NCBI GenBank assembly: GCA_003514005.1
Contig: DOSJ01000006.1
Location: forward strand, 2,281 to 66,280
Reading direction: 5' to 3'
DNA: 64,000 bases
From: Candidatus Falkowbacteria bacterium
GTDB lineage: Bacteria > Patescibacteriota > Patescibacteriia > Patescibacteriales > UBA12075
Positions 1,361 through 52,324 of the stretch are shown here, piece by piece (the stretch's first letter is position 1; every line of letters starts with the position of its first letter). Under the pieces are notes generated by a model. It was not told the origin of the DNA. It saw only the letters and a list, made by a program, of their open reading frames with translations, and ran no database searches. Position numbers and translations under genes: made by a program.

Positions 1361-1540
1361 TTGAGACTTGAGAAAAACCTCTTGTCATTCCCGCGCAGGC
1401 GGGAATCTCGGTTTTAAAAAAAACTGATTTTTGAGTTAAAGATTATTTAGCTAATGTTATCAAAAAATATTAAGTTATTTTTAACCAAGATTCCCGCCTG
1501 CGCGGGAATGACAGAAAAAAGAGTTTTTCTCAAGTCTCAA
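1361..1540. mobile_element. Hairpin-module MITE-like element, copy A (short module ... short module inverted), nested in an extra 18-bp perfect inverted repeat
   Basis: TTGTCATTCCCGCGCAGGCGGGAATC at 1382-1407 and its inverse GATTCCCGCCTGCGCGGGAATGACA at 1489-1513; outer TTGAGACTTGAGAAAAAC (1361-1378) matches the reverse complement at 1523-1540; intergenic. Confidence 0.75.
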
Positions 1541-3494: not shown

Positions 3495-3557
3495 TCTGGG
3501 CTTATAAGTTTTACTGTTTTCAATTATTTATTTTTTTGTTAGTATTGTGTTGACTAT

Positions 3558-3606
3558 AAACGAAGACACGAAAATAACGAAAATATACGAATTTAACGAA
3601 GTAATT
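3558..3606 (+). repeat. ACGAA-phased element, single arm (copy 2)
   Basis: AAACGAAGACACGAAAATAACGAAAATATACGAATTTAACGAAGTAAT; CG dinucleotides at 3561, 3569, 3578, 3588, 3597; near-identical to the right arms at 2747-2786 and 48415-48453. Confidence 0.65.
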
Positions 3607-6843: not shown

Positions 6844-6894
6844 ATTTGGTTTTTCCGATATGTGTACAGATTAATAATAAACTCTGTTCTCCTC

Positions 6895-7076
6895 TTGTCA
6901 TTCCCGCGCAGGCGGGAATCCAGGGGGAAAAGATCTGTGCATTATTAAACCTAATGACGTTTAAAAATATTCGAATCTTTTTCTCCTGGATTCCTGATCC
7001 CCGGCCAGCTCCGCTTGCGGGGCGGGCATTTAATATTTATAACCCTAGCGGGAATATTGTATGTCAGAAATGACAA
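6895..7076. mobile_element. Hairpin-module MITE-like element, copy B (short module ... degenerate long module)
   Basis: TTGTCATTCCCGCGCAGGCGGGAATCCAGGGGGAAAAG at the left end, CTGGATTCC...GCGGGAAT...GAAATGACAAAA at the right; architecture parallels copy E; between rpmE and prfA. Confidence 0.7.
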
Positions 7077-11518: not shown

Positions 11519-12076
11519 TTAGACTTTTGGCAGACAAGATTTTACATTTTTGATTATATGATTATAAACAAATTCAAAATCAACGATTAATTCCGAAATG
11601 TTTGGCTGTATGTCATCTGGCGTTTTTTGACCGTGTGCTAATTCATGTCTGATTCTGTTAATTCTTTCGAGTCTTGCGTTAATGTCTGGTTGAAGAGAAA
11701 TTAGATTTTGTGCAGTATTAAATAAAGTATTGAAATTATTTTTTGCTTTTTCACCGACCACGTTACTAATAAGCCCTCTTATTTGGTCAAGTTTAGTACT
11801 ATGAAAACCCTCAATATTTTTTTCTCGAGCCCCCATTTGTGTTTCTAAAAAATACTGTACATATTTTTTACCTCTGTATGCGGCAGATTTGTGGTGTTTA
11901 ATCGTTTTATCGAGCCAGTTTTGCAATATCGTTTCAATCATATATTCTATAGCACCGCAAACCAGAACATATGCGAAAGACATCATCTCTAATTTATAAA
12001 CACTTGTTGCCGGGTATTTATCTATGTCTTTTAGTGTTCGTATGATATATTTTTTTCTTTCTAAGATATCATTCAT
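11519..12076 (-). CDS. Stand-alone HEPN-like protein (putative RNase effector)
   Basis: 185 aa, helical-looking; C-terminal RINRIRHELAHG contains an Rx4H motif (RHELAH); 5-nt gap from the upstream DUF262 gene. Confidence 0.6.
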   Translation of the reverse strand: MNDILERKKYIIRTLKDIDKYPATSVYKLEMMSFAYVLVCGAIEYMIETILQNWLDKTIKHHKSAAYRGKKYVQYFLETQMGAREKNIEGFHSTKLDQIRGLISNVVGEKAKNNFNTLFNTAQNLISLQPDINARLERINRIRHELAHGQKTPDDIQPNISELIVDFEFVYNHIIKNVKSCLPKV

Positions 12077-12081
12077 ACGAA

Positions 12082-13179
12082 TTATGTTGCAAGAATTTTT
12101 TTAGCTATTTCCATTCTTTGTTTGTAATTTTTTTTATCAGATGTTTGTGCCGTTATAGAATTGATATAGTCTTGATTGTTAATCAATGTAGTATAATTTG
12201 ATTTTAAATTACCCCCCATTAATTTACTACTGCCCTGTAAATGAGCTACTGCACTCATCACAGATTCAAATATTGCGCGGTTAAAGGTTTTAGAATCTTT
12301 GGTTCGTGGAAAAGCTGAGCCGATATTTTTATCAATAACTATAATAGTATCATTGAATAAATTTTTATATTCTATAATTTTTTGTTCATTAATGTTTTGA
12401 TTAGTACTCATGAATTTATTTAAAAACGAAGTTATAGGCTTGTCATAATTGTGTCCTTCAAAAAATGCTGCAAAAAATCTTAAAATTGTTTCAACGTCCT
12501 TCATTCTTTTATCTGATTTTTTTGAAATTATTTTTCTCCAGGTGGTATTTTTTTCGTTTATTTCAAAAAGTAAATCGTTAAAAGTTCCACCGTATATACA
12601 ATTTCTAATTTCTTGTTGATTCAATACTACGCTGCCTGTGTTAATTCTTTGAAAGGCAGCAAATTTTATATTTGGATCTTCTTTTGGGTAAACAAGAATA
12701 ATTGCTTTTAATACAGCATTTTTTATTTTTTTTTGATAAGACTCATCAAGATCGTCGAACGTCTTATTTATAAATCTTTTATCTATTCCTTCATTATCTT
12801 TATCTCCGGTGAGTTTAAATATTCTTTCATCTCTGAACCTGCCTTTAAAAAAATCACAAATTGATAAGAGTCTTTGTTGTCCGTCTATTACTTCCATGGT
12901 TTCAGATTCTGGGTCTCTCCCTAATAAAATATTCGGCACAGGATAACCCAGCAAAAGGGATTCAATAAGTTTGCTTGCTTTTTTAATATCCCAAACAAAT
13001 TTTCTCTGGAAACTTGGCTGGACAATTATCTGTTTTGTTTCATTATATTGTCTAATTGAATCTAGGGTGTAATCAGCGCCATAACTAATAATTGGCCCTT
13101 TTAAGGGTAATGACTCTTCATCAGTATCTTCAATACTGAAAACTGATTCTTTAATTAGGGCTTTTTTTGATTTGGTCAT
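12082..13179 (-). CDS. DUF262 (ParB/Srx-like NTPase, GmrSD N-terminal type) protein lacking a DUF1524 nuclease half
   Basis: 365 aa; PSFQRKFVWD, LLGYPVPNI, VIDGQQRLLSI, FQRINTGSVVLNQQEIRN are textbook DUF262 motifs; no H-N-H or His-Me motif in the C-terminal part. Confidence 0.85.
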   Translation of the reverse strand: MTKSKKALIKESVFSIEDTDEESLPLKGPIISYGADYTLDSIRQYNETKQIIVQPSFQRKFVWDIKKASKLIESLLLGYPVPNILLGRDPESETMEVIDGQQRLLSICDFFKGRFRDERIFKLTGDKDNEGIDKRFINKTFDDLDESYQKKIKNAVLKAIILVYPKEDPNIKFAAFQRINTGSVVLNQQEIRNCIYGGTFNDLLFEINEKNTTWRKIISKKSDKRMKDVETILRFFAAFFEGHNYDKPITSFLNKFMSTNQNINEQKIIEYKNLFNDTIIVIDKNIGSAFPRTKDSKTFNRAIFESVMSAVAHLQGSSKLMGGNLKSNYTTLINNQDYINSITAQTSDKKNYKQRMEIAKKILAT

Positions 13180-13362
13180 ATATTGAATTTATTAATAATT
13201 CGTTTTTGTAGTATTAGCGAAGAAAATATCACATTACCCCTATTTTAATTAATGAAAAAGAAATTTTAAAATTTTTTTTCTGTTTTGGTTTTTAGGTAGA
13301 GGGGTTAGGGGTGAATGTCTAAAATCAAAAACTCCTCATTGGTTTTATTTTAATTGCAAGTA

Positions 13363-14577
13363 TTACTGCATAACTTGACTTGGGTGTAAGGAAAAGTTAA
13401 TTTTTTCTCTCGACTCAAATAATTTCTCCGATTGAATACTTTTTTCTTTTGCTAAATCTTTTTCAACTTGTTCAAGCATTTCGAATTCTACTTTTGAAAA
13501 TAAATTTGCGGGTATGCTATCCAATCTCTTTTTCACAGTTTTAATTGCCTGATCAGATTGATCTATTCCAATCCATTTTCGGTTCAGCTCTTGAGCCGCC
13601 AAAAGTGTTGTTCCTGATCCACAAAAACAATCAAGCACTAAATCGCCCTCATTTGATGAGGCGTTCAAAATAAGTTTTAATAAATCTAAGTTTTTTTCTG
13701 TCGGATAATTTGGATATTGAGGATCTTTAAATTCCCAAATATCTTGCATTTTTTTTCCGTCTTTTTCGTCAAGAAATATTTTTTTTCTTGGCACGCCGTT
13801 TGATGACCACTCAATAAGACCTGTTTTATCCCATTCCTCTAATAACGCGGGTTCACTGCGCCAATGGCGGCCTTTTGGTGGTTTTATTCCCTTCCACTCT
13901 CTTCCTGTATTTCCGTTTGCAGTTTCACCAGGGGCGTGCAAAGGTATCGTCGTGTATGATCGTCCATCTTTGTCAACTTTTTTAAATAATCGCGCCTCAT
14001 CTTCCACCGTATATTGGACACGAGGATTGTTCCAAGTTGGATTTTCAGATTTTGAATAGAAAAGAATTAAATCCTTAACATTTCCGTAGGCCTTGCGATT
14101 AAAGTTTTTTGGATTACATTTAATTCGAGTAATATCATTACGAAAATTTTTGCGACCAAAAACTTCATCCATAATCAATTTAACATAATGACCGACTTTA
14201 TAATCAATGTGAAGATAAATTGATCCATTTTCCGATAGTAATTCTCTTAAAAAAAATAAACGTTCTCGTAAAAATTCTAAAAAGTCAGCCCCTATAAGAG
14301 TGTCACTATAAGCTATGTCATCATCACCGCTACTGCTAATCGTACTAGCCCTATCCTCGCCAATTTTAAAATGCCCGTTTGTTGCAAAGGGCGGATCAAT
14401 GTATATCAAATCTACTTTGCCCGTATATTCGTCAAGCAATGTTTTTAAAATTGGAAGATTGTCGCCTTGAATCAATTTGTTTCCTGTTTTTCCACCGAAA
14501 ACCGTCTTTAATTTAGCATTCACGGTTTGAGCGAGAATATCTTCCTCGGATTTTTTATTTTCGTATGAGATAATCAT
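13363..14577 (-). CDS. Site-specific DNA methyltransferase, beta-class (N6-adenine or N4-cytosine)
   Basis: 404 aa; motif IV DLIYIDPPFATNG lies N-terminal to motif I VLDCFCGSGTTLLAAQ...GIDQ (order IV then I gives beta class). Confidence 0.9.
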   Translation of the reverse strand: MIISYENKKSEEDILAQTVNAKLKTVFGGKTGNKLIQGDNLPILKTLLDEYTGKVDLIYIDPPFATNGHFKIGEDRASTISSSGDDDIAYSDTLIGADFLEFLRERLFFLRELLSENGSIYLHIDYKVGHYVKLIMDEVFGRKNFRNDITRIKCNPKNFNRKAYGNVKDLILFYSKSENPTWNNPRVQYTVEDEARLFKKVDKDGRSYTTIPLHAPGETANGNTGREWKGIKPPKGRHWRSEPALLEEWDKTGLIEWSSNGVPRKKIFLDEKDGKKMQDIWEFKDPQYPNYPTEKNLDLLKLILNASSNEGDLVLDCFCGSGTTLLAAQELNRKWIGIDQSDQAIKTVKKRLDSIPANLFSKVEFEMLEQVEKDLAKEKSIQSEKLFESREKINFSLHPSQVMQ

Positions 14578-14579
14578 AA

Positions 14580-15362
14580 TTAAAGCTGATAAAGAAATTC
14601 GCGTAAAACTAAGGCACTTACTATATTTTCTTTTTTTAATTTTCCTGTTATGTCCTTGTGCATTTTATTTTTGCCTTTGATGTAGAGCACTCCATCTAGA
14701 ATCGCAATTATTGTTGCTTTTACGCCCTTCGCTTTTACCGTTGAAATTGCGTCATTAAACTGCGCGTTCTGGTGTCCGCCAAAATCAGTTAAAAATTTTG
14801 CTTCACCGATGACATATTTTCCATTAAAACGTCCGATAAAATCAAGACCCTTATTATGCTTATAATTCAAATGCTCTCTTGCAAAAGCCATCATTCCAGC
14901 ATCGCCTGCATCCAAAATAGCGTTTCCCTTTGCTTTTAAAAATTTGTCATGCTTCACAGGGGTAATTCCCAAAGATTTAGTATTAACCCAACGCTTAAAA
15001 AGCGGACCGATTTGGCGGTTTGTTTCTTTTGGCTCAGACGATCGAGAAAAAATTTCATCAAGACCCATATCATAAAGTCTACCGCACAAACGATCAACCG
15101 TGGCAGGATTTCGTTTTAATGATGCCTTGTCGCGTTTAAGATATGCCACATACGAATCTTTAATTGGAAATAAATCCATCCTTAAAAGATTTTCAAGTAG
15201 TGTGTCGTTATCTTTCTTTTTAAACGCTTTTTCTACTTTTTTCCATAATTCTCCGTCAAGATCTCTTATACCTTCGGGAATTGTAGGATAAACATGAAAA
15301 AGATCGTCTAGGTAACTCCTTTGATTAGCATATTCTATACTTAGCTGTGTCCAATGATTCAT
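14580..15362 (-). CDS. Restriction endonuclease candidate (PD-(D/E)XK-like)
   Basis: 260 aa; 2-nt gap to the MTase start; GLDFIGRFNGKYVIGEAKF gives D-x12-E-x-K; no other motif recognised. Confidence 0.6.
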   Translation of the reverse strand: MNHWTQLSIEYANQRSYLDDLFHVYPTIPEGIRDLDGELWKKVEKAFKKKDNDTLLENLLRMDLFPIKDSYVAYLKRDKASLKRNPATVDRLCGRLYDMGLDEIFSRSSEPKETNRQIGPLFKRWVNTKSLGITPVKHDKFLKAKGNAILDAGDAGMMAFAREHLNYKHNKGLDFIGRFNGKYVIGEAKFLTDFGGHQNAQFNDAISTVKAKGVKATIIAILDGVLYIKGKNKMHKDITGKLKKENIVSALVLREFLYQL

Positions 15363-18385: not shown

Positions 18386-18913
18386 ATGCCTAAGACAAAA
18401 TTACAAAAACAGGAGATCCTTAGAACAATTGAGGAAAAAATTAAAAAATCAAAATCAATCGTATTTGCAAAATTTGACGCGCTTGGAGTCAAGGACAATG
18501 AAGCTTTGCGCAGTAACCTAAAAAAATCAGACAGTGAATACTTAGTTGCCAAAAAAACTTTGCTTGATATCGCATTCAAAGACAAGGGGATAGAGAATCT
18601 AGAAATTAAAAATTTTGAAGGAAAGGTAGCCGCGATTTTCGCTTATGGCGATGAGGTTGCCCCGGCAAAAACAGTACATGATTTTAAAAAAGGCAAAGAA
18701 GAAAAAATCGATTTTGTCGGCGGTATCTTGGAAAACAAATTTTTAAGCAAGGAACAAGTAAGTGCCTTGGCATTATTGCCAAGCAAGAATGAGCTTTATG
18801 CCAAAATGGTCGGCTCGCTTAATGCTCCGATTTCCGGCTTCGTCAATGTCTTGGCCGGCAATTTGCGCAAGTTTGTTTATGTTTTAAAAGCAATTGAGGA
18901 GAAAAAGTTTTAA
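18386..18913 (+). CDS. rplJ: 50S ribosomal protein L10
   Basis: 175 aa; N-terminal KQEILRTIEEKIKKSKSIVFAKFDALGVKDNEALRSNLKK pattern; precedes rplL. Confidence 0.92.
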   Translation: MPKTKLQKQEILRTIEEKIKKSKSIVFAKFDALGVKDNEALRSNLKKSDSEYLVAKKTLLDIAFKDKGIENLEIKNFEGKVAAIFAYGDEVAPAKTVHDFKKGKEEKIDFVGGILENKFLSKEQVSALALLPSKNELYAKMVGSLNAPISGFVNVLAGNLRKFVYVLKAIEEKKF

Positions 18914-18951
18914 ATTATTGGTTCCTTTGATAATTTTATGGGTAAAAAATT

Positions 18952-19122
18952 TTGTCATTCCCGACACTCCATAGCCCCGCAGGGAATTGATATTAAATGA
19001 TCGGGAATCTTGGTATAAAAATAATAAAATAAGGATAAGATATAATGGTTTTATAACGAACATACGGTAAAAATATTTTATTATTAATAAACCAAGATTC
19101 CCGCCTTCGCGGGAATGACAAG
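18952..19122. mobile_element. Hairpin-module MITE-like element, copy C (long module 3 ... short module inverted)
   Basis: TTGTCATTCCCGACACTCC...GATCGGGAATC at the left, GATTCCCGCCTTCGCGGGAATGACAA at the right; sits between rplJ and rplL. Confidence 0.75.
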
Positions 19123-19251
19123 TGAGGAAAAAGTGTTTTATAAATAACCCCATAGAATTGCCACGATAACATAATTAATAATTAAATATAAATTAAGCTG
19201 ATTATATGTCGCGTTGTACACGTTCACATAATCCGCAGTAAATAAAAAAAT

Positions 19252-27762: not shown

Positions 27763-27854
27763 TTGTCATTCCCGCGAAGGCGGGAATCCAGGGTTTATTG
27801 CTCGAAACTGGATTCCCGCCGGAGTTTATGCCCGGAGGGGTACGGGAATGACAA
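27763..27854. mobile_element. Hairpin-module MITE-like element, copy D (short module abutting inverted module 2, no core)
   Basis: TTGTCATTCCCGCGAAGGCGGGAATCCAGGG followed by CTGGATTCCCGCCGGAGTTTATGCCCGGAGGGGTACGGGAATGACAA; the second half is the exact reverse complement of the left module of copy E. Confidence 0.8.
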
Positions 27855-38505: not shown

Positions 38506-38580
38506 GTTAATAAATCTTTTCCCCATACCTAAAAAGCTCGTGAATTTTATCATGCTTTTTAATTCGTGGGTCATAAACAT

Positions 38581-38958
38581 ATGGAGAAAAAAACAAACAA
38601 TTTCGGGGCAATACTCAAAGAATTTCGTTTTAAAAAAAACCTAAGTTTAAGAGAGGTATGTAAAGAGATTGGCTATGATCCAAGCAATTGGAGCAAGATT
38701 GAGCGGGGAGTATTGGCTCCACCGACCGACTTAAATACTTTGCATAAATGGGCGCTTACTTTGGGTCTAAAAAAGGGCGATAGCGCGTATCAAGATTTTA
38801 TCGACCAAGCCAATATATCACAGGGTATAATCCCAGAGGACATTCTGGCTCAAAAAAATCTGGTCAAAAGCCTACCGGCCTTTTTCCGCACTATTCGCAA
38901 CGACAAGCCATCCAAGGAGGAGATTGATACGTTGATTAAATTAATTAGGAATTCTTAA
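38581..38958 (+). CDS. XRE-family helix-turn-helix transcriptional regulator
   Basis: FGAILKEFRFKKNLSLREVCKEIGYDPSNWSKIERG is an HTH_3 pattern; the track ORF starts at a GTG (38566), and I prefer the ATG at 38581. Confidence 0.85.
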   Translation: MEKKTNNFGAILKEFRFKKNLSLREVCKEIGYDPSNWSKIERGVLAPPTDLNTLHKWALTLGLKKGDSAYQDFIDQANISQGIIPEDILAQKNLVKSLPAFFRTIRNDKPSKEEIDTLIKLIRNS

Positions 38959-38963
38959 AGCAA

Positions 38964-39578
38964 ATGGATTTTAGCAAATTCAGAACACCTTACATTAAAA
39001 AAGACGTTATTAAAATCAAGGCTGATACTTTTCGGAAAATGTACTGGAATGATTCTATTCCCGTAGATATCGAAAAGATTATAGATGTCAAATTGGGTAT
39101 TGACATTATTCCGACTCCGGACATGATGAAGCTTTGCAATACCGATGCCTTAATCTCATCTGATTTTACTTCAATTAACGTTGATAACGATTGGTACAAT
39201 GACGAGCGAAATATGAACCGTCTCCGTTTTTCTTTGGCACACGAAATGGGTCATTTTGTTTTGCATAAGGATATTTATGGAAGTTTTAAGATTGAAAGTC
39301 TTGATGATTTTTATAATTTTATAGAAAACATCTCTCAACAAACCTACCGGAGCATGGAATGGCAAGCGCAAACCTTTGCCAGTTATTTGCTGGTCCCGCG
39401 AGACATGGTGAGGTCTGTTTACAAAAAAATTTATGATGAAGTGCGACAAAGCGCTTCTATGGATTTTTCAAATATTGAGGAAGAATTTTTAAATGATCTT
39501 ATGTCTGTGCCAATGAGTAAAGAATTCGGAATTTCAGCGGAGGCGATGTTTTATGTGTTGAGTGAGTATAAAAATTGA
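38964..39578 (+). CDS. ImmA/IrrE-family (M78, COG2856-type) zinc metallopeptidase
   Basis: 204 aa; FSLAHEMGHFVLH (HExxH) followed by EWQAQTFASYLLVP; 5-nt gap from the XRE gene. Confidence 0.85.
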   Translation: MDFSKFRTPYIKKDVIKIKADTFRKMYWNDSIPVDIEKIIDVKLGIDIIPTPDMMKLCNTDALISSDFTSINVDNDWYNDERNMNRLRFSLAHEMGHFVLHKDIYGSFKIESLDDFYNFIENISQQTYRSMEWQAQTFASYLLVPRDMVRSVYKKIYDEVRQSASMDFSNIEEEFLNDLMSVPMSKEFGISAEAMFYVLSEYKN

Positions 39579-39645
39579 TTTTATGGATTTTAAATAATAA
39601 TATTTTAAAAATAATTTTCGTTTGCATGCTTGGCGATGAATAATT

Positions 39646-40044
39646 ATGGAAAAGCGATTTATCGTCCTCATGCTTTTGTTATTTTCACTTTCTGCCTGCA
39701 CCGCGTACGATATCCCTCAAACTTATGTAGAGCCGGTCGAGAAATCGGTTATTGAGAGACCGATTGATACAAGCAGTTTGACTGTTCCGGAAAAAAGCTC
39801 TGTTAGTGAACGGACTGAAACAGATGCGAAAACAAAAACAGTTACCGAAAAACCAAGCATTGATGTTCCGCTTTCCAATGACAATCACTACACCAATGTC
39901 GATGGCAACGAAGTTCATTCTCCGGCTTTCGCCCCATCCCGCCCATCCGGCGCTTCGGCCATGTGTAGAGACGGGAGTTATTCATTCTCACAGAATCGAC
40001 GGGGGACTTGCTCGCGGCATGGTGGGGTTGAGGAGTGGTATTAG
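39646..40044 (+). CDS. Lipoprotein with C-terminal DUF3761-like domain
   Basis: 132 aa; lipobox LSAC; C-terminus GASAMCRDGSYSFSQNRRGTCSRHGGVEEWY matches the DUF3761 signature as I recall it. Confidence 0.7.
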   Translation: MEKRFIVLMLLLFSLSACTAYDIPQTYVEPVEKSVIERPIDTSSLTVPEKSSVSERTETDAKTKTVTEKPSIDVPLSNDNHYTNVDGNEVHSPAFAPSRPSGASAMCRDGSYSFSQNRRGTCSRHGGVEEWY

Positions 40045-41856: not shown

Positions 41857-41929
41857 GCCGGTGTAACTCAGTTGGTAGAGTAGTGGTTTTGTAAACCATT
41901 TGTCGGGGGTTCGAGTCCTCTCGCCGGCT
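41857..41929 (+). tRNA. tRNA-Thr (anticodon UGU)
   Basis: Hand-folded cloverleaf: acceptor GCCGGTG/CGCCGGC, D-arm ACTC-AGTTGGTA-GAGT, anticodon stem GTGGT/ACCAT with loop TTTGTAA (TGT), T-arm GGGGG-TTCGAGT-CCTCT; no encoded CCA. Confidence 0.9.
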
Positions 41930-41937
41930 CATATTTT

Positions 41938-41970: not shown

Positions 41971-42009
41971 TGATTTATTAGATAATTCTGCAGATAAATA
42001 GTAAACATT

Positions 42010-42190
42010 GTTTTTCTCTTGTCATTCCCGTACCCCTCCGGGCATAAACTCCGGCGGGAATCCAGGGGGAAAAGCGCTTAATGTTCTAAACTAGTATAAT
42101 TGATTATGATATTCGAATTATTTACCCCTGGATTCCCGATCATTTAATATCTATTCTCTGCCGAGGGCAAGGAGTGTCGGGAATGACAAA
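42010..42190. mobile_element. Hairpin-module MITE-like element, copy E (module 2 ... module 3 inverted)
   Basis: TTGTCATTCCCGTACCCCTCCGGGCATAAACTCCGGCGGGAATCCAGGGGGAAAAG at the left, CTGGATTCCCGATCATTTAATAT...GTGTCGGGAATGACAAA at the right. Confidence 0.8.
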
Positions 42191-42292
42191 ATATTTTACA
42201 CATAAAATTGTCAAAAAAATTATATTTTGAATTATTATTAAAATAATGATATAATAATATCAGATAATTGATGATAATAATAGGAAAAAATA

Positions 42293-46151: not shown

Positions 46152-46273
46152 TTGTCATTTCGTAGCGGAGCGGAGAAATCCCTTAAAGATGGAAATTTCG
46201 CTAACCATATTTATTCTAAATACAACGTATAAGGGATTCCTTCAGTCGCTATCGCTCCTTGCGGAATGACAAA
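46152..46273. mobile_element. Hairpin-module MITE-like element, copy F (divergent module type 4)
   Basis: TTGTCATTTCGTAGCGGAGCGGAGAAATCCC at the left, GGGATTCCTTCAGTCGCTATCGCTCCTTGCGGAATGACAAA at the right; same TGTCATT...AATGACA termini. Confidence 0.65.
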
Positions 46274-48343: not shown

Positions 48344-48354
48344 AACAAGATAAA

Positions 48355-48453
48355 TCGTATTTCTTCGTTAATTTCGTATTTTTTCGTTTTTTTCGTGTCT
48401 TTGTTAAAAACAGAGACACTAAAAAAACGAAAATATACGAATAAAACGAAAAT
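48355..48453. repeat. ACGAA-phased long hairpin element, full copy 3
   Basis: Left arm CGTATTTCTTCGTTAATTTCGTATTTTTTCGTTTTTTTCGTGTCT, right arm AGACACTAAAAAAACGAAAATATACGAATAAAACGAAAAT; begins 12 nt after the micro-ORF stop. Confidence 0.7.
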
Positions 48454-51307: not shown

Positions 51308-52324
51308 ATGGAAGAAAAAATTCAAATTCTTTGGCAATCTTTAAAAGAAAAAGGCGCAACCAATAGCGAGTTTTGCGAACTTATCAAAAATATTCCAGAA
51401 TTAAGGGAAGAAGCTTGGCAGGAATTGAAAAAGAAAAATCCAAGTAACAATGACTTGCGTTTTCTAATAGAGCATGTGCCATCAATGCTTACCGTATTAT
51501 GGACCGAACTTAAGAAACGCAATATCTCGAATTATGAGCTCAAAAATATTATAGAATATGTTGAACCTCTGCGCAAAGAAGCTTGGAAATTATTACAAAA
51601 ACAAAAGCCAACGAATTTTGAACTTAGGGATATTGCCCGCTATGTTGATGTTTTACGTCATGACGCTTGGAAAATATTGCGCAAAAATAACCCAAGTGAA
51701 AATGATCTGCTATATATCATAAAATTTGTTGAATCCTTGCGCCATGATGCTTGGAAATCTCTTTCAAAAATCAAACCAGACATATCCAGCTTGATTTACA
51801 TCATGAAATACGTTCCGGAATTACGGAAAGATGCTTGGCTTATGGTAATAAAATTAAAAAAATCCAGTGAGGTTGTCGCAAAAGTTATCAAAGAAGTTCC
51901 AGAGCTTCGCGAAGAAGCCTGGAATAGATTAATCAAGCAAGATCCTGATACTGATAATTTATGCATGATCATGAAAAATGTTCCCGAGCTCCGCGAAGAA
52001 GCTTGGAAAAAACTTTGCGACCGAGGGTGCATGAATGTAGATCTGCGATTTATAATCAAAAACATCGAGGAGTTGCGCGATGTTGCCTGGAAAAAATTGC
52101 TTGAGCAAGGCGCAAGCAATGATGATTACTGTTTTATCATCAAAGACGTAAAAGGCTTGCGAGTCCAAGCCTGGGAAAGATTTATAAAAAACAATCCAAC
52201 TAATGAAGAGATTGATTTCATAATAAAATATATACCCACCATGAAAGAATACGCGCAAAAATTCAAAAATGAGGACAAAAATTCAATCTTAAAAGAAATT
52301 ATAAAAAATTATGGACAACAATGA
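51308..52324 (+). CDS. Tandem-repeat protein: ten in-phase 28-residue helical repeats
   Basis: Residues 25-304 (nt 51380-52219) parse into ten exact 28-aa units, consensus xIIKxVPELREEAWKxLxKxNPxxxDLxF, with an invariant Trp in each unit. Confidence 0.75.
   Translation: MEEKIQILWQSLKEKGATNSEFCELIKNIPELREEAWQELKKKNPSNNDLRFLIEHVPSMLTVLWTELKKRNISNYELKNIIEYVEPLRKEAWKLLQKQKPTNFELRDIARYVDVLRHDAWKILRKNNPSENDLLYIIKFVESLRHDAWKSLSKIKPDISSLIYIMKYVPELRKDAWLMVIKLKKSSEVVAKVIKEVPELREEAWNRLIKQDPDTDNLCMIMKNVPELREEAWKKLCDRGCMNVDLRFIIKNIEELRDVAWKKLLEQGASNDDYCFIIKDVKGLRVQAWERFIKNNPTNEEIDFIIKYIPTMKEYAQKFKNEDKNSILKEIIKNYGQQ

Follow-up and report, generated by a model that had tools for sequence, protein, structure and literature searches.

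Palindromic elements in the window

We analysed a 64,000-nucleotide stretch of a Candidatus Falkowbacteria bacterium (contig DOSJ01000006.1; hereafter the window), which has a GC content of 36%. The window contains six short palindromic elements, and their ends carry hairpins related to the Neisseria Transformation Sequence (NTS), with either short or long loops. A first-pass annotation had proposed six intergenic copies at this locus, and all six were present when we read the intervals at the coordinates given. Their intergenic placement also held when checked against the open reading frame (ORF) map and the Pfam domains of the neighbouring proteins. The copies are listed below with the strand in brackets; loci outside the window carry L numbers.

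Copy A, 1361..1540: unknown 343-aa gene to the left, ftsW to the right; outer 18-bp inverted repeat (1361-1378 / 1523-1540), AT-rich spacer, and short-loop NTS-type hairpins at 1383-1410 (+) and 1486-1513 (-).
Copy B, 6896..7074: between prfA and rpmE, both on the - strand; short-loop left hairpin at 6896-6923, one mismatch from the Neisseria NTS; degenerate long-loop module at the right end, ~6991-7074, with terminus TGTCATTTCTG on the - strand; conserved leader of ~40 nt upstream of the element, 6856-6895.
Copy C (composite), 18918..19166: within the rplJ-rplL spacer; outer arms at 18918-18952 and 19121-19166 enclose a long-loop module (18953-19013), an AT-rich core and a short-loop hairpin on the - strand (19093-19120).
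Copy D, 27764..27853: minimal form without outer arms, flanked by two glycosyltransferase genes; short-loop hairpin 27764-27791 (one mismatch to NTS), 16-nt spacer, long-loop module 27808-27853 (-).
Copy E (composite), 41978..42215: closely follows tRNA-Thr (41857-41930) and precedes a PilT/T2SSE-type ATPase gene; long-loop modules at 42020-42065 and, on the - strand, 42121-42188, with a core between them; leader/outer arm at 41978-42019 and a second outer arm at 42189-42215.
Copy F, 46153..46271: divergent subfamily; gene for a PDZ-domain protein to the left, lepA to the right.
Seventh copy, L005:15688-15933: 3.5 kb past the end of the window.

As noted in the first-pass annotation, ORFs running across the elements yield spurious peptides such as VIPAQAGIQ and IPAFAGMT. 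Masking is advised for annotators of metagenome-assembled genomes (MAGs) from the Candidate Phyla Radiation (CPR), where the elements create such ORFs and inflate spacers in operons such as rplJL.

The terminal hairpin is a previously described repeat

We found the exact 20-mer ATTCCCGCGCAGGCGGGAAT in the published literature. The NTS is defined as CGTCATTCCCGCGMAVGCGGGAATCYRG and includes dRS3, a classic repeat of the form ATTCCC-N8-GGGAAT (Chenal et al., Nat Commun 2025, PMC11893778). In distantly related bacteria, NTS-like Ssn-related motifs (SRMs) flank homologues of SsnA, a protein of 94 aa with a single GIY-YIG domain (cd10448). Binding by SsnA requires the hairpin to be single-stranded and in one orientation, and the cut falls a few nucleotides upstream of the tag. 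This strand-specific binding and cleavage was demonstrated with Neisseria and Wolbachia Ssn proteins (PMC11893778). The same sequences had been classified earlier as CGTC-tagged repetitive extragenic palindromes (REPs) of family CGTC-1, which corresponds to the neisserial dRS3 and the rickettsial RPE-6 (Di Nocera et al., BMC Genomics 2013, PMC3733652). CGTC-1 repeats have a CGTC (or TGTC/CCTC) tag, an 8-bp stem whose first two pairs are A-T, a 4-nt loop and a 3-nt CCA-type tail. They occur in five phyla, mostly as tag-outward "HH" dimers with spacers of 20-100 bp, and have no associated transposase (PMC3733652).

We compared the window termini with these definitions. Under the published NTS criterion, CGTCATTCCCGCGMAVGCGGGAATCYRG with at most one mismatch (PMC11893778), the termini at 6896-6923 and 27764-27791 are matches. 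The SRM pattern, HGTCWY N0-2 YYVSBRH N0-5 WNVSBRG N0-2 RNCYNB, is matched by five termini (1383, 1513-, 6896, 19120- and 27764) as against 0.06 in 100 dinucleotide shuffles, and is unmatched by the seven long-loop or variant termini. Five termini have all the CGTC-1 features, reading TGTC, ATTCCCGC, GCAG or GAAG, GCGGGAAT and then CCA, CTT or CTC, while the long-loop termini deviate from CGTC-1 in loop length alone. The tags lie on the outside in all six window copies and in the L005 copy, with spacers of ~16-110 bp. These data indicate that the repeat family has already been described, under the names CGTC-1 REP, dRS3, NTS and SRM, and is not a newly recognised family of miniature inverted-repeat transposable elements (MITEs). 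The first-pass annotation was right about the structure: the elements are small, non-autonomous and palindromic, with hairpin termini, no target-site duplication (TSD) and no transposase close by. Their arrangement is that of the known tag-outward REP dimer. Our literature search found no report of REP or NTS repeats in Patescibacteria.

The hairpins are far more frequent than chance would predict. The motif TGTCATTCCCG has nine exact matches in the window, compared with 0.55 expected and a maximum of three in 100 dinucleotide shuffles; a single one-mismatch match falls in coding sequence and was judged to be chance. For ATTCCCG-N(2-30)-CGGGAAT, there are seven matches compared with 0.00 expected from shuffles. 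The exact hairpin 24-mer is also present in at least 120 viral or proviral contigs with GC contents of 41-72%, some of which have NTS hairpins within gene clusters of Mu-like and lambda-like phages. A GC-rich 28-mer is shared nearly letter for letter by a groundwater symbiont-type bacterium of 36% GC, Neisseria and Alphaproteobacteria of 70% GC. Such conservation points to a strong constraint imposed by a protein, horizontal spread, or both.

The elements are mosaics of hairpin modules

As a single strand, each whole element folds into one long hairpin, with delta-G values of -24 to -64 kcal/mol and z scores of -5 to -18 relative to mononucleotide shuffles. Copy A is the element with a delta-G of -63.6 and a z score of -17.7. 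Each element starts with (T/C)TTGTCATTCC(C)G and finishes with the reverse complement, ...CGGGAATGACAA, around an AT-rich interior, so the inverted ends and AT-rich cores reported in the first-pass annotation are borne out. When aligned on TGTCATT, the termini follow a common plan of a pyrimidine-rich flank, TGTC, ATTCCCG(C), a loop, (G)CGGGAAT and a tail of C(C/T)(A/T)GG. The terminal hairpin itself is TGTCATTCCCGCG(C/A)AGGCGGGAATCCAG.

The five short-loop termini have a perfect 8-bp stem, ATTCCCGC/GCGGGAAT, and a 4-nt loop of GCAG or GAAG. Five long-loop termini have 24-56 nt (24, 41 or 56) inserted between the stem arms, and their modules recur in both orientations: 27808-27853 and 42020-42065 are 96% identical, and 18953-19013 matches 42121-42188. 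Copy F retains the TGTCATT tags and GRAATCCC tails but has 5-bp stems (left end ATTTC/GAAAT, right end ATTCC/GGAAT) and loops of 13-21 nt. The stem ATTCCCG/CGGGAAT, which the first-pass annotation placed at every end, is exact in 7 of the 12 termini; copy B at its right end, and copy F at both, have degenerate or variant sequence.

Further sequence is conserved outside the tags. In copies A, C and E, outer arms extend 20-45 bp beyond the TGTCATT termini. The arm TGGTTCTTTAGAYAATTYTRTGGGTAAA lies 25-45 nt outside each TGTCATT, in inverted orientation, in copies C and E and the L005 copy; copy A has TTGAGACTTGAGAAAAAC in its place, and copy D has no outer arm. The first-pass annotation also described copy A as nested inside a perfect 18-bp inverted repeat. 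This repeat is real, but it was not a pre-existing hairpin into which the element inserted, because the homologue at L210:5504-5679 carries it too and it therefore belongs to the copy A element.

Only the hairpin modules are common to the six window copies. They thus represent six mosaic subfamilies instead of six copies of one element, and do not reflect a recent burst from one master copy. The elements are mosaic, non-autonomous units of 90-250 bp that resemble neisserial intergenic mosaic elements (NIMEs) and REPINs, the hairpin-forming REP doublets. No direct repeat flanks any of the ~14 copies that we inspected, in agreement with the lack of a TSD noted earlier; the 5' flank is merely pyrimidine-rich.

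The elements are dispersed insertions shared between organisms

We compared the rplJ-rplL spacer with that of the closest L7/L12 matches among GTDB species representatives, which are Candidatus Falkowbacteria, Parcubacteria and Patescibacteria MAGs with 66-85% identity. The spacer is 338 bp in the window and 9-206 bp in 79 relatives (median ~48), and copy C with its outer arms makes up most of the 338 bp. None of the 79 relatives has an element in this spacer. In addition, 1.23 Mb of sequence from 80 relatives contains hardly any instance of the tag-plus-stem motif, and the sole clean dimer there lies at L205:7355-7434.

A metagenome scan with one long-loop module retrieved contigs of other organisms (GC 40-44%) that contain full-length homologues with 75-96% identity:

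Copy A homologue, L210:5504-5679: 86%.
Copy B homologue, L210:3390-3606: ~75%.
Copy C homologue, L207:2333-2613: 84% over 283 nt.
Copy D homologue, L207:2009-2104: 96%, with homology ending at the termini.
Copy E homologue, L208:1254-1478: 87% over 226 nt.

By tblastx, the genes flanking the window copies have no similarity to those flanking the homologues. The absence of the rplJ-rplL copy from 79 relatives and the non-syntenic positions of the homologues indicate that the elements are dispersed insertions shared between genomes. This supports the mobility suggested by the first-pass annotation and removes the alternative it had named, that the copies are conserved orthologous regulatory sites.

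The module-C pattern had no match among GTDB species representatives, which places the species outside that collection, and just six matching stretches in JGI metagenomes. An 89-aa ORF running across copy C, used as a query for related copies, had no match in the protein database. The homology between copy C and its counterpart also takes in ~12 nt at the 3' end of the gene upstream (18902-18913 in the window, L207:2602-2613), and both upstream proteins finish ...K(K/N)F-stop. The copy C outer arm may be the source of the last codons and stop of rplJ, or this may be chance similarity of AT-rich sequence. The window proteins are also encoded on contigs of 137-166 kb in several ENA and JGI metagenome assemblies, which we take from their sample names to be Rifle aquifer datasets. 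The window contig is present in ENA ERZ27254730 (k141_545486), ERZ27254739 (k141_665709) and ERZ28564140 (scaffold_50), and in JGI 3300001242 and 3300025309.

The best-supported candidate partner is a GIY-YIG nuclease

The first-pass annotation saw no cognate transposase and suggested a search for a RAYT (REP-associated tyrosine transposase) or an IS630-like gene. Neither a Y1 transposase nor an IS110 gene was found in the window, the 10-kb flanks, the contigs with related elements or the loci from relatives. An IS630-like partner found no support, and no RAYT was detected. The better-supported candidate, which the first-pass annotation had not considered, came from the viral and proviral loci that contain the 24-mer. 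In five of them, a GIY-YIG ORF lies directly beside the hairpin. A profile of those five Ssn-like proteins retrieved 11 loci, and all 11 have hairpins on both sides of the gene. In each case, a forward hairpin precedes the start codon by 10-70 nt and an inverted one lies just after the stop.

The same bracket is found at low GC content. An AT-rich Ssn-like query retrieved loci of 27-45% GC with this arrangement (L293, L296 and L299), which include long-loop hairpin variants, tandem cassettes and decayed copies; none is demonstrably from Patescibacteria. The stems covary between genomes, as ATTCCCGC, ATCCCCGC, ATGCCCGC, ATTCCCAG, ATTTCCGA and ATACCCGA each occur with an exact complement. Taken together, a GIY-YIG single-stranded DNA nuclease (Ssn) is the best-supported partner for these hairpins.

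Several observations accompany these loci. At L299:4001-5337 and L298:4001-4814, two or three Ssn-type GIY-YIG cassettes stand in tandem, each with its own hairpins, inserted between hsdM and hsdS of a type I restriction-modification locus on a 27% GC contig. At L293, decayed ssn copies lie beside an intact one. Among the 150 ORFs nearest to hairpins in viral contigs, a Pfam scan returned mainly phage structural genes, which say little about a partner, together with two GIY-YIG members. A T-tagged variant of the hairpin occurs in 88 stretches of viral contigs, and the 63 additional loci that it gave contain no nuclease gene.

We also considered a small CPR-type GIY-YIG subfamily as the partner. 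A query built from a consensus for this subfamily retrieved 7945 proteins, but their genes are bracketed by CACCCCGTTAGATA and not by NTS, and this candidate was rejected. In two loci from other organisms (GC 36%), L213:1981-2342 and L216:1357-2267, GIY-YIG genes of 84-90 aa and of the REKYLKTTYGKRYLKNRL type lie between inverted copies of CACCCCGTTAGATA. These genes apparently split host genes, SLFN_AlbA_2 / Fic-like_C in one case and Bro-N / unknown in the other. By analogy, the combination of GIY-YIG and CACCCCGTTAGATA looks like a second pairing of nuclease and repeat comparable to Ssn and SRM.

Proposed origin of the elements

The elements are inverted, tag-outward pairs of the CGTC-1 REP/dRS3/NTS/SRM hairpin that probably have an Ssn protein as partner and derive from its cassette. 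Their ends are those of an ssn cassette, with an AT-rich spacer of 16-110 bp in the place of the gene, and so they look like gene-less cassettes. Under this model, the window organism would encode a cognate Ssn elsewhere in its genome. The protein would bind the single-stranded hairpin and cut that strand a few nucleotides to the 5' side of the tag, as described for the published enzymes. Because each strand of a dimer carries one forward hairpin, either strand could be cleaved at its own 5' boundary of the element whenever it became single-stranded, as might occur during DNA uptake, replication or repair. The gene-less dimers would derive from a hairpin-ssn-hairpin cassette. Since the genes on either side of most copies point the same way, the copies are probably co-transcribed into long RNA hairpins, which we regard as a side effect and not as their origin.

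Several results weigh against this proposal. Neither Pfam nor hidden Markov model searches identified a GIY-YIG gene in the window, in 10 kb on either side, in the contigs with related elements or in the 1.23 Mb from 80 Patescibacteria relatives. For the window genome, this absence is weakly informative, since ~86 kb of perhaps 1 Mb could be reached. An Ssn partner in the window organism, and in the phylum Patescibacteria, is putative. The published SRM pattern does not cover the long-loop modules or copy F, which an Ssn may or may not accept. Ssn cuts only 5' of a forward hairpin, which would give one nick per strand at opposite ends, and such nicks alone account for neither excision nor copying. 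Six other assemblies of the window contig are 100% identical over the overlap, so no recent movement is visible. Finally, a preprint assigns the identical Neisseria sequence to a Group 2 RAYT (bioRxiv 10.1101/2021.07.10.451892).

A stronger version of the Ssn model, which we put forward tentatively and consider doubtful, is that the hairpin-ssn-hairpin cassette is an undescribed selfish mobile element whose nuclease acts at hairpin-marked ends. The window dimers would then be miniature derivatives, and in Patescibacteria they might also mark DNA for the cutting of incoming single strands at every element. Consistent with this idea, ssn genes always lie between tag-outward hairpins, and tandem and decayed copies exist (L293, L299). 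Also consistent are the window elements themselves, which have the same ends without the gene, occupy new sites and are common to several organisms.

Alternative explanations

The strongest competitor to an Ssn partner is that the hairpin is a REP and the dimers are REPINs, copied through single-stranded hairpin intermediates by a single RAYT related to IS200/IS605 transposases. The architecture agrees with the definition of a REPIN, two inverted REPs <130 bp apart that fold as one long hairpin, and the lack of a TSD is compatible with a RAYT. Moreover, the 21-mer ATTCCCGCGCAGGCGGGAATC has been treated as a Neisseria REP linked to a Group 2 RAYT, and frameshifts in the RAYT were reported to go with REPIN decay (Bertels and Rainey, bioRxiv 10.1101/2021.07.10.451892). 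However, Di Nocera et al. found RAYT genes beside GTAG REPs but never beside CGTC-tagged ones (PMC3733652). A phmmer search with an E. coli YafM sequence, which is a weak test, detected no RAYT-like ORF in the window, its flanks or ~300 loci. No Y1_Tnp domain was found among the window ORFs scanned with Pfam, and this family is missing from the 25 families listed, out of 36 in all, for the 150 ORFs closest to hairpins. In every Ssn-like locus examined, by comparison, the hairpins bracket a GIY-YIG gene. We therefore consider a RAYT unlikely.

A second alternative, compatible with the Ssn model but still less probable as the explanation of the elements, is that the hairpins are landing pads, kept as integration targets of IS110-family/Piv-type recombinases and filamentous prophages as in Neisseria. 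dRS3 is a published target of a phage recombinase (PMC11893778). We found an IS110-family gene (DEDD_Tnp_IS110 and Transposase_20) in 13 hairpin loci from viral contigs, often 230-300 nt from the hairpin. These 13 loci fall into a few near-identical groups, however, and are probably Neisseria prophages, whereas the window and its flanks contain no IS110 gene or prophage. Use as a target also fails to account for the multiplication of hairpin dimers. The near-identical IS110-family genes near NTS hairpins (L019, L022, L055, L057, L069, L090, L106, L109 and others) probably reproduce the known integration of Neisseria filamentous prophages beside dRS3.

We regard it as very unlikely that the copies are vertically inherited sites at fixed positions with a cis-regulatory or structural role, for example as terminators, attenuators or mRNA-stabilising hairpins. 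The copies do lie in spacers between co-directional genes, one of them within the rplJL operon, and very stable RNA hairpins are expected from all of them if transcribed. The empty spacers in relatives, the near-absence of the motif from their DNA and the unrelated genes beside homologous copies in other organisms all contradict fixed positions. Reading the sequence directly, we found no T-run after the GC-rich stem on either strand, so the hairpins are not intrinsic terminators. At Rfam gathering thresholds, only tRNA-Thr was identified in the window. We also judged by eye whether the outer arm could be a promoter and rejected this, as the spacing of TAGACA-N10-TAAAAT is wrong for sigma-70.

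Classical MITEs, deletion derivatives of a DDE-transposase insertion sequence (IS) moved in trans through terminal inverted repeats, are the least credible explanation: the small size, terminal inverted repeats, AT-rich interior, intergenic location and an IS3-family transposase pair ~3 kb upstream of the window (L001:6171-7465) would suit them, but no copy among ~14 has a TSD, the termini are hairpins common to several phyla of 36-72% GC, the IS3 region has no TGTCATTCCCG-like ends, and Pfam identified no other transposase in the window. That IS, with HTH_Tnp_2 and rve integrase ORFs, lies between pfkB and gyrB and is unrelated to the hairpin elements.

Other features of the window

The window has a second, unrelated palindromic family composed of TTTCGT/ACGAAA units such as ACACGAAAATAACGAAAA. 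Its copies, at 2688-2792, 3518-3606 and 48353-48450, are hairpins with arms of 40-50 nt directly after the 3' ends of ftsW, L25 and lepA. Analogous low-complexity palindromes occur in the rplJ-rplL spacers of relatives (L147, L150, L181 and L185). These palindromes are possibly lineage-specific terminator-like hairpins.

A defence-type island occupies 11519-15362:

11519-12076: RiboL-PSP HEPN protein.
12082-13179: GmrSD-type DUF262 nuclease.
13363-14577: DNA methyltransferase-like gene, identified by eye.
14580-15362: Tsp45I-family restriction enzyme.

At 38566-40044, an Xre-type helix-turn-helix gene is followed by genes for an IrrE/M78 peptidase and a DUF3761 protein; the first two are typical of an antitoxin/protease-type regulatory pair. 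A 338-aa ORF at 51308-52324 has no Pfam hit and consists largely of 84-nt (28-aa) tandem repeats ending ...EAWK.

Comparison with known systems

CPR genomes are tiny and repeat-poor, and are thought to rely on DNA uptake. Our results extend to this group a repeat family that recent work has linked with a new class of site-specific single-strand DNA nucleases. Several features are new here: the host phylum, the clean isolated dimers, the mosaics of long-loop modules and outer arms, and the likeness of the copies to gene-less ssn cassettes.

The elements share with MITEs such as the Correia element of Neisseria a small size, an AT-rich interior, terminal inverted repeats, an intergenic location and likely co-transcription with neighbouring genes. 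Unlike the window elements, those MITEs make TSDs and derive from DDE-type ISs, whereas the termini in the window are autonomous hairpins. The likeness to REPINs with a RAYT comprises an inverted REP pair that folds as one long hairpin, the lack of a TSD, non-autonomous copies and a presumed single-copy partner gene. Canonical REPs, however, are GTAG-tagged and flank the RAYT gene, which is not seen for the CGTC class (PMC3733652), and no RAYT was found for the window elements.

With CGTC-1 REPs, including RPE-6 of Rickettsia, the elements have in common the TGTC variant of the tag, the AT-starting 8-bp stem, the 4-nt loop and the CCA/CTT/CTC tail. Both form intergenic HH dimers with spacers of 20-100 bp and complementary spacer ends, and neither has an associated transposase. 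The difference is that heterodimers of one short-loop and one long-loop hairpin predominate in the window.

The 28-nt window hairpin is one base apart from NTS (first base T for C). As in NTS and SRM repeats, its orientation follows from the GTC tag together with the C next to the palindrome on its 3' side, and both are strongly enriched over shuffles and found in distant taxa. In genomes other than the window host, inverted hairpins bracket ssn genes. Patescibacteria are not mentioned in PMC11893778, which analysed RefSeq representative genomes, and no ssn gene was found in the ~86 kb reached of the window genome. Many window termini have loops of 24-56 nt, outside the SRM definition. The window hairpins always come as inverted pairs, set apart by conserved spacers and accompanied by outer arms, and not as large clusters near particular genes.

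The elements also resemble the NIMEs of Neisseria, repeat segments of ~50-150 bp bounded by inverted dRS3-type hairpins (described in part in PMC11893778 and PMC3733652). In both, modules are shuffled so that each locus is another mosaic. NIMEs, however, form long arrays of many units beside particular genes, often for surface proteins. The window loci instead hold single dimers, spaced about every 9 kb among housekeeping genes. These isolated dimers offer a simpler substrate than the Neisseria arrays for studying how hairpin pairs are copied and how far Ssn tolerates long loops.

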